Below the pieces are notes generated by a model that saw nothing but the letters and a program-made list of their open reading frames with translations, was not told where the DNA came from and made no database searches. From the NCBI GenBank assembly GCA_963842525.1, contig CAWJGT010000009.1:1728001-1792000 (forward strand): DNA of 64,000 bases. The letters are read 5' to 3'. The DNA is from an uncultured Holophagales bacterium (GTDB taxonomy: Bacteria > Acidobacteriota > Thermoanaerobaculia > Multivoradales > UBA5704). Position numbers and translations under genes: made by a program. Positions 40,288-46,470 of this stretch are shown here, piece by piece (the first letter of the stretch is position 1; every line of letters starts with the position of its first letter).

Positions 40288-42320
40288 CTCCTGGCCGTAC
40301 CGACCTGCTCGCCCTCACGCCCGAGAGCCTGGCCGCCCTGGCCAACGTCGGCCTCGTCAAGCGCGCCCAGAAGGAGCTGGAGCAGGGGAGGGGGCCGCAA
40401 CTCTCCGAAGCGCCCAACGGCACCGTCGTCGGGACCTTTGCGGACGGCGTCGATCGCCCGCCTGCCGCCGGGGGTCCCTCTGCGCGAGGCCCCCTGCACG
40501 TGCGGCGCCGTCACCGTCTGCCGCCACCGGATCGCGGTCGCCCTGGCCTACCGGGCACAGCACGGCGGAGAGCCGCCGCCGGCCGAGGAGAACGCCGCGC
40601 CTCCCTGGTCTCCCGGAGAGATCGACGACGCCACGCTCCTCGCCCGGCTCGGCCGGCGGACGCTCGAACGGTCGCGGTCGCTGCGGCGGTCCGGCTGCAT
40701 TGTCGAGGTCCGCCGTCCGGGATTGCTCGACCCGGTCGCCACCGCGGTCCTCCCGACCTGCACGGTGCGTTTCCTGGTCCCCCGCGACCTCGCCTACGCC
40801 CGCTGCGACTGCCAGGCGCAGCAGGACTGCGAGCACGTGGCCGTTGCGGTCTGGGCCTTCCGCGCCGCCGATGCGCGGGACCGCGAGGCGCAGCAGCTCC
40901 TCGTGCAGGTCGCCGACGAAGCCAGGGGTCGATCCGTCCGAAGGCGACCCCGGCCGACCCCGCGCTGGAAGCGTTGGACAGCGCCATCCGCCTGGGCGAG
41001 GAGATTCTCCTGGAAGGGGTCGTCCATGCCCGCGACTCGCTGGCCCAGACCTTCGCCCTCGGCCGTCAGGGGCTGCTCCGCGCCGGCCTGACCTGGCCGC
41101 TGACCTTATTGGAAGACCTGGAGGAGGCCCTGGCCGCCTACCGCGCCCGCAGCGCCCGCTATCGCGCCGGCCGGGTGACCGAGCTGCTCGCGGAGCTGAC
41201 CGCCCGCAGAAGAGCCGTCCGCGGGACCGGCGAGCTGCCCGTCCCCTTCGTGCTGGGACAGGGAGAGGCGCTGGAGACCCGGCTCGACCACCTGCGGCTC
41301 GTGTCCCTGGGCGCCCGCATCGAGGCCGACGGCCGGGACCGGGAAGCCGAGGTCGTCCTGGCGGACCCGGACACCGCGATGGTCCTCGTGCTGCGCAAGC
41401 GTTGGACCTTTCCGGAGACGGAAGAGCCGCCGGACGCGACCGGCCTTGCCGCGCGCCGCGTGGCCTCCGGAGCCGCCCTGGGAGCCCTCGCCCAGGGCCA
41501 GATGGTCACCCGAGCCGCCCGGCGCCGCGCCAACCGCAGCCTTGTGTTTGGAGATGCGCGTGGCGGAGCCACCTCGGTCACCCCGCAGACCGGCGCCTGG
41601 GACGTGCTGCCCGCGCCGCTCCGCGTGACCCGCATCGCCGACCTCGCCGCGGCCTGGAAGACGCGTCCGCCGCGGCTGCTCCGTCCCCGCGTGCTCGCCG
41701 AAAACGTCCACGTCTTCGCCATCGAAAGCATAGCCGCCCTCGCCTACGCCCCCGGCGAGCAGACGCTGCTCGCAACCCTCCTCGACGCCGACGGTGAGCC
41801 GCTCCGCCTCGCCCGCCCCTACCGCTCCGTAGCACCGCACGCCCTGGACCATCTGGCCGCGGCCCTCATCGGCGCCTGGGGCTCCGTCCGCTTCATCAGC
41901 GGCGAGGTTCGCCGCCACCTCGGCGGCTTCGTCATCGATCCCCTGGCCGTGGTCTGCGACCGTCTCGTGGTCCCGGACCTGGAGAAGGGGACTGCCGAAC
42001 GGCCGCGCCTGCCGCTCGCCGGACCAAGCGCCGACCTGCCAGTCGAAGCCGCCGCAGCCGAAGCGTCAGGGCTTATCGAAGAGGGCGTCCACCAAGGCCT
42101 GCGCCGCGCCGCCCCCAGCTATCCCGACCGCCTCCGAGCCGGCGCCGCAAAGCTGGAAAAGGCCGGCCTGGCCACCGCCGCCACCCGCCTCCGCCGCCTC
42201 GAAGAAAGCCTCCGTCGCGCAAGGGCCGCGACCGAGGAGCAGGAAGAGAAGTGGAGGCAGGTGTCGACCGCCTGGAGCGACGCCGCCCTCCACCTCGATC
42301 TCGTGCGGGAGGTGGGGTAG
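40284..42320 (+). CDS. yehQ: SWIM zinc-finger protein (YehQ-like); frameshifts near 40452 and 40935
   Basis: LAALANVGLVKRA; two SWIM motifs CTCGAVTVCRH and CDC...CEH. Confidence 0.82.
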   Translation: MTPGRTDLLALTPESLAALANVGLVKRAQKELEQGRGPQLSEAPNGTVVGTFADGVDRPPAAGGPSARGPLHVRRRHRLPPPDRGRPGLPGTARRRAAAGRGERRASLVSRRDRRRHAPRPARPADARTVAVAAAVRLHCRGPPSGIARPGRHRGPPDLHGAFPGPPRPRLRPLRLPGAAGLRARGRCGLGLPRRRCAGPRGAAAPRAGRRRSQGSIRPKATPADPALEALDSAIRLGEEILLEGVVHARDSLAQTFALGRQGLLRAGLTWPLTLLEDLEEALAAYRARSARYRAGRVTELLAELTARRRAVRGTGELPVPFVLGQGEALETRLDHLRLVSLGARIEADGRDREAEVVLADPDTAMVLVLRKRWTFPETEEPPDATGLAARRVASGAALGALAQGQMVTRAARRRANRSLVFGDARGGATSVTPQTGAWDVLPAPLRVTRIADLAAAWKTRPPRLLRPRVLAENVHVFAIESIAALAYAPGEQTLLATLLDADGEPLRLARPYRSVAPHALDHLAAALIGAWGSVRFISGEVRRHLGGFVIDPLAVVCDRLVVPDLEKGTAERPRLPLAGPSADLPVEAAAAEASGLIEEGVHQGLRRAAPSYPDRLRAGAAKLEKAGLATAATRLRRLEESLRRARAATEEQEEKWRQVSTAWSDAALHLDLVREVG

Positions 42321-42422
42321 AGATGGGATGAGAAGGCCACCCTCCCGGTGCGCAGTGCCTTAAAATGGCCCTGCAAACTGGGAATATTTAAGCGCTGGAA
42401 AGCGCAAGAAAGGAGGGTGGCC

Positions 42423-43481
42423 ATGAAGAATGCTATCAGAGTGGAGGTGGAGGCGGTGGTGGGCGTAGACCTTGGGGACCGTTCGAGTCAGATCTGTCGT
42501 CTGGATCGAGAAACGGGAGCGATCTTGGAAGAGAAGCGTCTGTCGACGACCTCGGCGAGCTTTCAGCGCTACTTTGAAGGGGCAAGCCCGTGTTTGGTCA
42601 TCCTGGAGAGCGGGACGCACACACCCTGGGTGCGGCGGTTGTTGGAATCTTTGGGCCACCAGGTGATCACCGCCAATCCCAGCAAGGTTCGGGCGATCGC
42701 ATCGAGCCTGCGCAAAAGCGACGAGCGGGATGCCCGGTGCCTGGCGCAGTTGGGCCGAGTGGACCCAGAGTTGCTCAGTCCGGTGCACGCGCGAAGCCCG
42801 GAGTCGCAGCAAGCCTTGGCAGTGGTGCGCGCCCGGGAGGGTCTGGTCAAGGTCCGGACGATGCTGGTCAACCAGGTCCGCGGGATGGTGAAGTCGTTCG
42901 GCTTTCGCCTGCCGGGGTGCTCGGCGAAGAGCTTCGCCCGAAGTGCGTCGCAGGCCTTGCCGCAGACGCTGAAGGCTTCTCTGGAGCCGCTGTTGGCGGT
43001 GATCGCTGATCTGAGTGAGCGGATCGGGGGCTTTGATCGAGACATTGAGGCGTGGGCGCAGCGTTTTGCCGTGACGCAGCGGTTGCGCCAGATCAAGGGA
43101 GTGGGAGCGCTGACGTCTCTGGTCTTCGTGTTGACGCTGGACGATCCGCATCGTTTTGCTCGCTCGCGTTCGGTGGGGGCCTACCTGGGATTGGTGCCAG
43201 CAAGTCGAAGCTCGGGCAGCTCGACGCCGCAGTTGCCGATCACCAAGCAGGGCGACCGGCTGTTGCGCTGGCTGCTGGTGCAGGCCGCGCACTACATCCT
43301 CGGTCCTTTCGGCCAGGACAGCGATCTACGCAGGTTCGGACTGGAACTGGCGCGGCGTGGAGGCAAAAACGGCAAGAAGCGAGCGGTGGTGGCCGTGGCC
43401 CGGAAACTGGCGGTGCTGCTGCACCGGCTCTGGATCAGCGGCGAGGATTACGAGCTGTGCCGCCAGCCGGTAGCAGCGTAA
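42423..43481 (+). CDS. IS110-family DEDD recombinase/transposase
   Basis: VGVDLG, ILESG, KSDERDA; C-terminal IKGVG, YLGLVP..RSSG, AVARKL. Confidence 0.95.
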   Translation: MKNAIRVEVEAVVGVDLGDRSSQICRLDRETGAILEEKRLSTTSASFQRYFEGASPCLVILESGTHTPWVRRLLESLGHQVITANPSKVRAIASSLRKSDERDARCLAQLGRVDPELLSPVHARSPESQQALAVVRAREGLVKVRTMLVNQVRGMVKSFGFRLPGCSAKSFARSASQALPQTLKASLEPLLAVIADLSERIGGFDRDIEAWAQRFAVTQRLRQIKGVGALTSLVFVLTLDDPHRFARSRSVGAYLGLVPASRSSGSSTPQLPITKQGDRLLRWLLVQAAHYILGPFGQDSDLRRFGLELARRGGKNGKKRAVVAVARKLAVLLHRLWISGEDYELCRQPVAA

Positions 43482-43549
43482 AAAAGCTCAGGTAGGGGGA
43501 AATCTCAGGTAGGAGAAACCACGGTCGATAGGAGCTCGCGTCGAACCCC

Positions 43550-43700
43550 CGCTGCCGGCGACTGCGCTGGGCGTCTTCAGCCTACGAGGCCGCTGTAGAG
43601 ATAGCAGCGCCGCTGCGGTGGAACCCCATCATGCACCGAGTCCAAGCGACGGACTCCTCGAGAGTGCGGATAGAAGACTCGGGGACAGACGCAGCTCTGA
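43550..43700 (+). ncRNA. Predicted bridge (seek) RNA with target- and donor-binding loops
   Basis: Two stem/internal-loop units whose loop segments match the target and the IS-end junction (see findings); transcript ends are approximate. Confidence 0.75.
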
Positions 43701-43885
43701 AGCCAGATAGGGAAGGCCGCCAAGGGCGGCCTTGACATTCGGGGCCTTCTCATAGAAGACGCCCTACCCCGCGACCACTGCCCTTGTGGCCACCACATCC
43801 GCCAGGGCGTCTCCAAGGCCCCCGCCACCACCGATGCCCCGCCCACGCCATGGTAGGATTCGATCGAGTTGTGGAGGCTCCAGCA

Positions 43886-44227
43886 ATGCAAGCACACAGG
43901 ATGCGCGTCGTGGTTCCGGAAGATCATCGAGCGGTGATCGAGTTCCCGAAGACCATTCGCTCCGGCCCGGTGGAGCTCATCGTGCTCGTGCCACCGGAGA
44001 GCGAAATGGAACCGGACCGCAAGCCTGAAGGGCAGGGTCGTATGGCGGCTCTGGTCGATGACCTCGCCAAGGATCCGCGGCCGTTTCGCGAGCTCTCACC
44101 CGACGAACGCAGTGCTCGGCTCGAAAAAGTGATGGGCGTGGGCCGCGGACTGATGTCGACGAGCGAAGAATTCGCCAGACAGAAGCGCGAGGAAATCGAG
44201 CTCGAGGAACAGAAGTTTGCCCGCTGA
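43886..44227 (+). CDS. Putative antitoxin
   Basis: GGAGG RBS; small protein overlapping the PIN gene; acidic C-terminus STSEEFARQKREEIELE. Confidence 0.7.
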   Translation: MQAHRMRVVVPEDHRAVIEFPKTIRSGPVELIVLVPPESEMEPDRKPEGQGRMAALVDDLAKDPRPFRELSPDERSARLEKVMGVGRGLMSTSEEFARQKREEIELEEQKFAR

Positions 44228-44633
44228 CGGGCTGTACGTCTTCGATTCGTGTGCCGTCATCGCTTTTCTGCAGCGCGAGCCCGGCGCCGAGGTCGTAGCG
44301 GAAATCCTGAAAGATTCCAGGAACCGCTGTTTCATCCACGCCATCAATGCCTGCGAGGTCTACCACGACATCTACCGCCGTGGAGGTGAGGAGGACGCCT
44401 CAGCTCTCGAAGAGATCCTGGCAACTACCGGCATCGAACTGGTAGAAACGATTCCCTCCACCCTCTGGCGGACCGCTGGAAAGCTCAAAGCCGAATGGCG
44501 ACGGATATCGCTGGCCGACTGTCTCGCCATTGCCCTCGCCCTCTTGGAGAATGCCACCCTCCTGACCAGCGATCACCACGAGCTCGATCCGATCGCGCAA
44601 GCGGCGATCTGTCCGATCCGTTTCATCCGGTGA
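44217..44633 (+). CDS. vapC: PIN-domain (VapC-like) toxin
   Basis: VFDSCAVIA, NACEV, SLADC, LLTSD. Confidence 0.88.
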   Translation: MPADGLYVFDSCAVIAFLQREPGAEVVAEILKDSRNRCFIHAINACEVYHDIYRRGGEEDASALEEILATTGIELVETIPSTLWRTAGKLKAEWRRISLADCLAIALALLENATLLTSDHHELDPIAQAAICPIRFIR

Positions 44634-44634
44634 C

Positions 44635-44752
44635 GCGACGCCGCCCTCCTCCTCGATCTCGTGCGGGAGGTGGGGTAGAGACGCCCTAGTCCGCGACCAC
44701 AACCCTTGTGGCTACCACATCCGCCAGGGCGTCTCCAAGGCTCCGCCACCAC
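44635..44752. repeat. Direct repeat of 42277-42320 plus 43757-43831 (SWIM gene 3' end and GTAG REP)
   Basis: gcgacgccgccctc...gtggggtagagacgcccta...gggcgtctccaagg. Confidence 0.9.
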
Positions 44753-45072
44753 GAACGCCCGGGACTGGCCTCCACAGCCTGCGGGCACCCCCCCTGGGAG
44801 CGCCGGCGTCCCGCCGGCATCATCAAGACAGTTGGGCCGTAGGCCCGGCCTTCTTGGACTGCGGCGGGAGGCAAGGCGCGAACTCATCGCTGGGATTGCG
44901 GTGCCTATGGCCGGCCGCCGTGGTCGCGGGGGGCGCGGGCCGGCGAGACGCCAGCGCTCCCAGGAAAAAACTGTTCGTCCGGTTCCCAGGCGTTCGTGGT
45001 CGCGGAGGCCGGAGACGCCCTGACGGTGGTGGTCGCCGCGAGGATGGTGGGAACGGACTAGGGCGTCTCTAC
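44675..45072. repeat. Inverted pair of GTAG-type REPs enclosing a second REP doublet
   Basis: gtagagacgccctagtccg at 44675 and its reverse complement ending at 45072; inner ctgggagcgccggcgtcccgccggc / gccggcgagacgccagcgctcccag. Confidence 0.75.
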
Positions 45073-45399
45073 GAAGATTCGCTGGCCGTACCTGTTTCAA
45101 GCCGTTTTCCGGGGCTTCCTTTTTCTCTTCGTGTCCTTGGCCGCTGGGGCTGGTTGCACCCCGAATTCCCGATCCAGCAATTCCATCAAATCGGGCCGCT
45201 TGATACTCGTCCATGCCTCCCGTGCTGCCGCAACGTGTCCTTGGCGCTCCTCGGGAGTCGCGGCAACGCGGGCCAGCCTGAGGTGGCTCCCGCCGATCGA
45301 GTAGCGATTCTGAATGCGGCGGTAGAGGACGAGGGATTCCTCGAACGATCGTTGTGCATCCTCCGATCGCCCCTCCCGGACCGTGATGTCGCCGAGGCC

Positions 45400-46110
45400 C
45401 TGGATGCAGTTGGCCTCGCCGCGGAGGTCGCCGACTTTTCTGTAGAGAGGTAGTGCCTGCTCGTAGCGCTCGCGAGCGTTGTCGTGGTCGGACCTTTCGA
45501 GGGCGATGTCGCCGAGGCTCTGGATGCAGTTGGCCTCGCCGAGGAGGTCGCCGACTTTTCGGTAGAAAGGTAGTGCCTGCTCGTAGCGCTCGCGAGCGGT
45601 GTCGTGGTCGAACCTTCGAAGGGCGATGTCGCCGAGGCTCTGGATGCAGTTGGCCTCGCCGAGGAGGGAGCCGACTTTTCGGAAGAGAGGTAGTGCCTGC
45701 TCGTAGCGCTCGCGAGCGGTGTCGTGGTCGGACCTGTCGAGGGCGATGTCGCCGAGTCTCTGGATGCAGTTGGCCTCGCCGAGAAGGTCGCCGACTTTTC
45801 GGAAGAGAGGTAGTGCCTGCTCGTAGCGCTCGCGAGCGGAGTCGTGGTCGGACCTTCGAAGGGCGATGTCGCCGAGTCTCTGGATACAGTTGGCCTCGCC
45901 GAGGAGGTCGCCGATTTTGCGGAAGATGGGGAGTGCCTGCTCGTAGCGCTGTCGGGCGTCGGCATGGTCGGATCTGTTGAGGGCGATCTCGCCTAGGCGT
46001 GCAATGCAGTTGGCCTCGCCGAGGAGCTTGCCGACTTTTCGGTAGAGGGCTAGTGCCTGCTCGTAGCGCTCGCGAGCGGAGTCGTGGTCGGACCTGTAGA
46101 GGGCGATTTG
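45400..46110 (-). repeat. About six 120-bp tandem repeats encoding 40-aa TPR units
   Basis: tggatgcagttggcctcgcc-type unit recurs at 45401, 45521, 45641, 45761, 45881 and 46001. Confidence 0.9.
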
Positions 46111-46470
46111 GCCGAGTTTCTCCAGGCAGCGCGCCTCCTGCTGTTGGTTTTCCAAGGCGCGAGCCGCGTCCGATGCTCGGGTCAGCGGGCCGACTGAGCC
46201 CAAGCCGGAGACGGTAGAGAATTTCCCCCAGGAGAGTGCGCCCTCAATTGCAGGTTCGGGATTTGGCTGCTCGAGCCGGGAGAGGATCATAGCTTCTACA
46301 TTTCCCGTCTCGGGCGCGAGCCGCTCGACGGCAGCCGCACCTCCTTCCCGCCCCACTTCCTCCCCTCGCAGTGCCAAATCCACATAGAACGCCACGGTCC
46401 GGTCGAAATCCTCCTGCTGCGGAGGATACCGACGCCGAGTGTGCTCCCGTACCGGCGCAAGAACCCTCAG

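Follow-up and report, generated by a model that had tools for sequence, protein, structure and literature searches.

We are confident that positions 42322-43759 of the 64,000-nucleotide stretch analysed here (the window; positions are counted from its first letter) constitute an insertion sequence of the IS1111 group within the IS110 family, whose recombinase probably works with a guide RNA from the non-coding DNA that follows the gene (Table 1). The DEDD and Tnp domains of the recombinase, the subterminal inverted repeats, the downstream non-coding region and the 2-nt GA core at both junctions led to the group assignment; these hallmarks, as present in the element, are set out in PMC11187229 and PMC11208160. 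The placement is based on such element features, with about 30% identity to proteins labelled IS4321/IS5075 as indirect evidence. In the proposed mechanism, the recombinase (42423-43481) would probably be guided by an RNA from about 43531-43698. The target loop of this RNA would read the target, GUAGAGA forming pairs with the bottom strand where the top strand reads GTAGA-GA. The joined ends of the excised circle would be read by a second loop, in which AUAGAAGA recognizes the right end and CCCAUC the left end, and exchange at the common GA core would place the element between GTAGA and CGCCC with nothing else duplicated. The production of the RNA and its binding by the recombinase, the formation of the circle and the chemistry of strand exchange we infer by analogy with IS621, ISEc11 and their relatives. 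The initial annotation had read the element as an RNA-guided recombinase with a GA core and a predictable target, and the protein family, the ends, the insertion point and the site specificity support this reading.

Table 1. Features of the element and of its free target sites in the window
Feature	Position	Strand	Remarks
Left target flank GTAGA	42317-42321	+	precedes 3/3 genome copies and 16/16 close-group insertions
IS1111-group element, 1.4 kb	42322-43759	+	from left GA (42322-23) to right GA (43758-59)
GA core, left copy	42322-42323	+	GA at both junctions; single GA (44680-81) in the uninterrupted paralogous site
Left end	42324-42422	+	terminal TGGG 42324-27; subterminal inverted repeat ATGAGAAGGCC 42328-38; ribosome-binding site AAGGAGG 42410-16
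Recombinase gene, 352 aa, DEDD RuvC-like and Tnp domains	42423-43481	+	Pfam, NCBIfam, IS621 alignment
Putative bridge/seek RNA, conserved block	43531-43698	+	aligns with 41 homologous non-coding regions (alignment A1)
Target-binding stem-loop	43556-43612	+	consensus structure of A1
Target-loop outer helix	43556-60 and 43562-65 with 43604-12	+	A43561 bulged; 99.7% of cells paired
Target internal loop	43566-76 / 43593-603	+	A1 consensus
Right target guide gggcgtct	43569-76	+	reverse complement of A+GA+CGCCC
Handshake-like dinucleotide UU	43576-77	+	matches last AA of right end
Target-loop inner helix	about 43577-83 / 43588-92	+	A1 consensus
Left target guide GUAGA+GA	43595-43601	+	identical to top strand of left flank and core; pairs with bottom strand
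Left-end guide CCCA+UC	43625-43630	+	complement of GA+TGGG; weakest of the four guides
Donor-loop inner stem-loop	43633-43667	+	GCACC 43633-37 with G43662 and GUGC 43664-67
Donor-loop hairpin GAGUCC / GGACUC	43638-43 / 43651-56	+	part of donor-loop inner stem-loop
Right-end guide AUAGAA+GA	43670-43677	+	identical to right end ATAGAA and GA
Perfect 9-bp hairpin AAGGCCGCC / GGCGGCCUU, loop AAG	43713-43733	+	G+C-rich; directly 3' of RNA block; overlaps the -35-like TTGACA
TTGACA, -35-like box	43732-43737	+	position as in the initial annotation
Right end	43743-43759	+	subterminal inverted repeat GGCCTTCTCAT 43743-53; terminal AGAA 43754-57; right GA core 43758-59
Right target flank CGCCC	43760-43764	+	3/3 genome copies
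Unoccupied target GTAGAGACGCCC	44675-44686	+	inside 44620-44760, paralogous copy of both element flanks
Second unoccupied target	45061-45072	-	one of 47 perfect genome sites

The recombinase gene starts 6 nt downstream of AAGGAGG. Its product matched the Pfam families PF01548 (DEDD_Tnp_IS110; residues 13-158, 66.8 bits) and PF02371 (Transposase_20; 69.2 bits) and, with 243.4 bits against a cut-off of 140, the NCBIfam model NF033542, "IS110 family RNA-guided transposase". The alignment to IS621 (8wt6) was weak (35.8 bits, E = 4.4e-8), as was that to ISCro4. Both the D-x-x-D motif (KSDERD) and the S-G serine line up with their counterparts in IS621, as does GLVPASRSSG with GLTPRRYESG; the Tnp-domain motif is given as G-x-x-P-x4-S-G in PMC11187229. 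The alignment with IS621 begins at residue 61, and the first D and the E of the DEDD motif were assigned directly from the sequence. The best protein match in a search of plasmid records had 37.7% identity. The nearest named relatives in these records, IS4321 and IS5075, are likewise directed to the terminal inverted repeats of other repeated or mobile units, but the proteins labelled with these names have an amino-acid identity of just about 29-30% over about 80-85% of the protein. With these values, the recombinase is not a copy of any named element in the plasmid records. That the class is known and the member possibly new, as initially suggested, is borne out: the element is a new example of a kind known since 2024, and standard annotation already calls the protein RNA-guided.

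The junctions of the window element read GTAGA-GA-TGGGATGAG on the left and CTCATAGAA-GA-CGCCC on the right. Both subterminal inverted repeats have a length of 11 bp and lie 4 nt inside the core (42328-38, 43743-53); for the IS1111 group, a span of 7-17 bp is reported in PMC11208160. The non-coding DNA comprises 278 nt downstream of the recombinase gene (43482-43759) versus 101 nt upstream (42322-42422). In alignments to 44620-44760, the two flanks (left, 42261-42323; right, 43758-43839) overlap exactly on the GA at 44680-81. This paralogous site joins the flanks on one GA, thus the pre-insertion state is visible and only GA is repeated. The intact empty target GGGGTAGAGACGCCC was located at 44672-86, in agreement with the initial annotation. 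The uninterrupted repeat of about 140 bp with both element flanks, 0.9 kb downstream, includes the last ~45 nt of the upstream open reading frame. The stretch between the two flank copies (43886-44633) holds two open reading frames that overlap by 11 nt, one of 113 aa without a Pfam match (43886-44227) and one with a PIN domain (44217-44633; PF01850, 60 bits). Together, they resemble a toxin-antitoxin pair with a REP-like unit directly repeated on either side. The second free target adjoins a gene on the reverse strand (45097-46395) for a 431-aa protein with many near-identical tetratricopeptide repeats (TPR_12, 154.6 bits).

The target is itself a repeated sequence. The genome (9.95 Mb, 68% G+C) contains 47 occurrences of the 12-mer GTAGAGACGCCC, compared to 2.3 expected from the base composition, and at 40 of the 47 sites an inverted partner GGG[CT]GTCTC follows within ~50 nt downstream; the target is therefore the terminal inverted repeat of abundant REP-like palindromic units. 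The 9-mer GAGACGCCC alone was found 326 times. REP-like repeat families with the terminal inverted repeats GAGACGCCC(Y) … (R)GGGCGTCTC are present across the genome, and the 12-mer target was found in at least three types of repeat unit, a short hairpin of ~26 nt and two units of ~50-60 nt.

A whole-element search revealed three copies of the element in the genome. The initial annotation had taken copies at unrelated sites as evidence against its reading; all three copies are flanked by GTAGA-GA on the left and GA-CGCCC on the right, and the sequences farther out are unrelated among the copies. The two other copies differ from the window copy at 6 and 9 of about 1,438 positions, with guides and supported helices untouched. 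The full 352-aa frame is intact in the window copy and in the copy on contig C1. In the third copy (C25:401714-403154) a one-base insertion after the equivalent of position 42514 cuts the frame to 51 aa, and two further single-base insertions lie in the RNA leader. The window copy is without a T at 43540/41 in the RNA leader that is present in both other copies. The frameshifted copy, the missing leader T and the low number of three copies versus 47 free perfect targets may be read as signs of a relic, an authentic architecture in a lineage recently silenced, with an RNA or a recombinase that no longer works. We regard this as unlikely: the differences between copies are confined to the few positions given above, none of them in a guide or a supported helix, two copies keep the frame, and the near-identity at three separate sites points to recent movement. 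The DEDD_Tnp_IS110 domain was matched at 19 places of the genome in total, three of which represent the element described here. The 16 others form at least three sets with near-identical scores (5, 4 and 7 places), indicating several other IS110-family elements that presumably each have a guide RNA of their own.

A scan of one genome per species yielded 128 stretches encoding a relative, of which the best 80 were kept. Nearly all of these 80 are from metagenome-assembled genomes (MAGs) of Acidobacteriota; three are labelled Dormiibacterota, Limnocylindrales and Limnocylindria. Both ends were located in 74 of 83 loci; without the two extra copies of the own genome, 72 elements with 42 distinct RNAs remained, which form alignment A1. 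The left end is conserved across the 74 loci, drawn from the best 80 of the 128 relatives and the genome copies; the right end is conserved within a close group. This close group (13 loci, L004-L016) aligned over the whole element with 77-84% nucleotide identity and has the same ends and the same target: GTAGA-GA is present on the left in 16/16 insertions, and on the right CGCCC in 10/16 and a one-base variant in 6/16. A distant group, with 53-56% protein identity, has the left end GA-TGGGATGAG in common, ends with CATGGAAG-GA on the right and inserts at about TTAYCA-GA-STTRG. Five insertions in three MAGs (L038, L039, L043, L059, L075) have a common long left flank ending in TAAAAGGACA and a left target guide match of 2/6; these may lie within another repeated or mobile unit travelling with the element. 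In the leader between the stop codon and the RNA block, the window copy has a direct repeat of CTCAGGTAGG (43487-43496 and 43504-43513), and similar repeats occur in close relatives. The hairpin behind the RNA block was seen in the single-sequence fold and is kept in the close group; the terminator scan remained silent on it, for no T run follows the hairpin.

The structure of the putative RNA was derived with RNAalifold on the 42 RNAs of A1 and by pair counts per cell. In the consensus, 95.2% of the cells were paired, compared to 88.6% in shuffles and 24-43% with the partners slid. Ten pairs showed compensatory changes, and the covariation score of 0.195 versus 0.085 was reached by 0/500 shuffles. 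Two of the compensatory pairs are in the target-loop outer helix (AU 32 / CG 9 / GC 1 and UA 34 / CG 8), four in the donor-loop inner stem-loop (98-99% of cells paired) and three in a short donor-loop closing helix that is present in the distant group only (A1 columns 139-142 / 222-225). The stems drawn in the initial annotation (gcgctg 43564-69 / cagcgc 43605-10 for the target loop, gctgcg 43612-17 / cgcagc 43690-95 for the donor loop) are complementary in the window sequence. The outer target stem was not sustained by the homologues: 57% of the cells were paired over the 42 RNAs, and the stem is present in 8 close sequences only. It was replaced by a helix shifted by a few bases (43556-65/43604-12). 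The outer donor stem, still a candidate closing stem in this lineage, was paired in 24-41% of the cells family-wide, but in 74.5% in the 8 closest sequences, with one compensatory pair. An alternative leader/tail helix, 43531-36 / 43693-98, competes with it for 43693-95 and was paired in 91.7% of the cells in the same comparison on 8 close sequences, also with one compensatory pair. A helix CCGCC/GGCGG (A1 columns 36-40 / 216-221) was dropped, being paired in 81.8% of the cells without covariation and failing in the close group. Single-sequence folds of 43482-43759 and 43550-43705 were no better than shuffles (z = -0.87 and -0.45) and did not reproduce the loops initially drawn, and Rfam 15 gave no match on 42200-43900 at E values up to 1, a negative of little weight. 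Covariation analysis, the check proposed with the initial annotation, thus brought out conserved helices with compensatory changes, but a target-loop stem in a different register.

G-U pairs were frequent in the consensus, one pair being U-G in 42/42 sequences and a second one G-U in 31. Many of them are valid on the plus strand only, suggesting an RNA in the same orientation as the gene. The target-like and end-like segments are equally present in the DNA, and a comparison of sequences alone cannot show an RNA; the segments could thus act as DNA, either as protein-binding sites or as single-strand DNA guides as in IS200/IS605. This explanation is very improbable, since the helices are kept via G-U pairs, which are C-A on the other strand, and since related IS1111/IS110 elements were shown by experiment to use RNA from this region, as described in PMC11187229 and PMC11208160.

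All four guide segments are present in the window copy where the initial annotation had placed them, and each matches its claimed DNA partner. In the RNA, the top-strand match (43569-75) is 5' of the bottom-strand match (43595-601). This is the order described for seekRNAs of the IS1111 family in PMC11187229, and it holds in both loops. In dinucleotide-preserving shuffles of region 43482-43740, the four segments occurred together in 0/20,000 and two or more in 47; the single segments were found in 144 (8-mer), 583 (7-mer), 977 (6-mer) and 123 (8-mer) of the 20,000 shuffles, with segment lengths chosen post hoc, which favours the observation. At the same A1 columns, the distant group carries other sequences: (C/U)AA(G/C)UC in place of the right target guide GGGCGUC, UUAUCAGG and variants in place of the left target guide GUAGAGA, and AUGGAAGGA in place of the right-end guide AUAGAAGA. 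Each of these fits the target and the right end of the distant group itself. In the right-end guide of the distant group (AUGGAAG+GA) and in its right end (CATGGAAG+GA), the same A-to-G change and the same extra base are present. That the matches arose by chance or from a captured fragment of the REP-like target repeat is hardly credible: the right target guide GGGCGTCT is similar to GGGGCGTCTC, the second arm of the palindromic repeat, but the four segments never coincided in the shuffles, and in homologous RNAs with a quite different target (about TTAYCA-GA-STTRG) the same columns hold the matching sequences.

For a test of covariation, the identity over 6 flank positions was determined in the 69 insertions with both flanks, for the own guide and for the guides of the other group. 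The own match was 5.13/6 for the left target guide, versus 1.42 with the guides of the other group, 3.88/6 versus 1.02 for the right target guide and 6.0/6 versus 1.0 across groups for the right-end guide. The left-end guide scored 4.06 versus 4.64 for the guides of the other group, a comparison that is uninformative because the left end is identical in both groups. Its CCCA is invariant in 42/42 RNAs, yet 11/72 insertions have an uncompensated left end TGAG. Judged from this alignment, three of the four predicted guides covary with their DNA partners across the relatives and the left-end guide does not. The initial claim of four readable guides was thus retained for both target guides and the right-end guide (42 RNAs), but not to the same degree for the left-end guide, which comprises only 4+2 nt and lacks covariation. 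Within the distant group (55 insertions), the right target guide had a mean match of 3.64/6 and several insertions matched poorly. Where the core-adjacent guide base is C, the flank has C in 25 and G in 6 insertions; where it is G, the flank has C in 2 and G in 12. Ten rows with other bases are excluded from this table, and its Fisher p = 4e-5, like the other covariation p-values, overstates the independence of the observations, as the sequences are related. The observed guide match in the distant group was 8.65/12 compared to 7.14 ± 0.23 after shuffling the guide sets among the elements; the observed value was reached in 0/5,000 shuffles. One close-group element with the guide UGGCG instead of GGGCG has CGCCA at 2/3 of its sites.

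In IS621, two bases beside the right target guide, the handshake guides, are described to pair with the donor after strand exchange and to bias the reaction towards insertion (PMC11208158, PMC13626964). In the window RNA, the core complement of the right target guide is followed by UU, and the right end finishes with AA; in the distant group the dinucleotide in this place is CU and the right end finishes with AG. The targets carry GA (window) and CA (distant group) at those places, hence UU and CU do not track the target. The dinucleotide fits a handshake role, as far as can be judged from one change between two lineages. In four insertions of one MAG (L053, L054, L060, L065) and one of another (L070), the left junction has GA and the right junction GC in 5/5 cases, and the right target guide of this family and of L070 has GC in its core positions. 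Such insertions could be naturally occurring examples of donor and target cores that differ. The joint reading, a dinucleotide that tracks the right-end tail across lineages together with naturally differing cores in the L053 family and L070, is tentative, and we give it slightly less than an even chance.

A promoter formed across the circle junction is plausible, though weakly supported. The initial annotation had proposed it from the TTGACA near the right end, and TTGAC[AT] is in fact conserved 22-24 nt from the right end in 35/35 distinct end pairs. The circle would supply GAAGA/T as -10 box at a 17-nt spacing, with the T coming from the left end, but only 3/6 positions match, including A2 and T6. 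The best -10 reading of the distant group is AAGGAT at 19 nt. A promoter scan of the linear element detected no promoter-like site. The contigs of four soil-metagenome runs over 42200-43900, with partial cover, contained neither a circle-junction nor an empty-site joint and are uninformative on circles and excision; loose contig ends of these runs fit other copies or other repeat units.

The element shares with ISEc11, ISKpn4, ISPa11 and ISPst6, as described by Siddiquee et al. 2024 (PMC11187229), a DEDD/Tnp transposase (about 330-350 aa in those elements), subterminal inverted repeats, a downstream non-coding region, the guide order and site-specific insertion; ISPa11 likewise targets a REP. 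It differs from them in having its relatives in Acidobacteriota MAGs and in the target GTAGA-GA-CGCCC. The short seekRNA is described there with target matches only, whereas the window element adds a second loop matching the element ends. The RNA of IS621 (Durrant et al. 2024, PMC11208160; Hiraizumi et al. 2024, PMC11208158) likewise has two internal loops with two guides each, including the core dinucleotide; the bottom strand is bound by its left guides and the top strand by its right guides, in each case with the core (PMC11208160). A handshake-like dinucleotide beside the right target guide that matches the donor and not the target is a further likeness. Unlike the window element, IS621 belongs to the IS110 group, has its RNA in the left end upstream of the gene, a reversed guide order, the core CT and terminal repeats of only 2-3 bp. 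ISPpu9 and ISPpu10 of Pseudomonas putida also insert into repetitive extragenic palindromes, with a small RNA gene (Ssr9) downstream of the transposase (PMC12288879). Extra stand-alone copies of the RNA gene are described for ISPpu9 in the same source. For the window element, the whole-element search of the genome, which gave the three full copies only, revealed no stand-alone RNA copy. According to PMC11208160, 93% of the IS1111 entries are predicted to have such an RNA in the right end.

The window element leaves the knowledge of the class unchanged. It represents a fully parsed natural bridge-RNA recombinase from the Acidobacteriota, far from the enterobacterial and pseudomonad models. Its core is GA, its target has 12 bp, and its own genome offers 47 free target sites. 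Among the relatives, two target specificities, several single-base guide variants and a right end one base longer, with a guide to match, make up a natural series from which design rules for IS1111-type systems could profit; these systems are less studied than IS621 and ISCro4. If the handshake reading is true, the IS621 rule on the bias between insertion and excision would extend to the IS1111 group with the loop order reversed. If the donor and target cores of the L053 family and L070 do differ, these elements would report how core mismatches are resolved. With its preference for the terminal repeat of REP-like units, the element also accounts in part for the repeat landscape of this genome.
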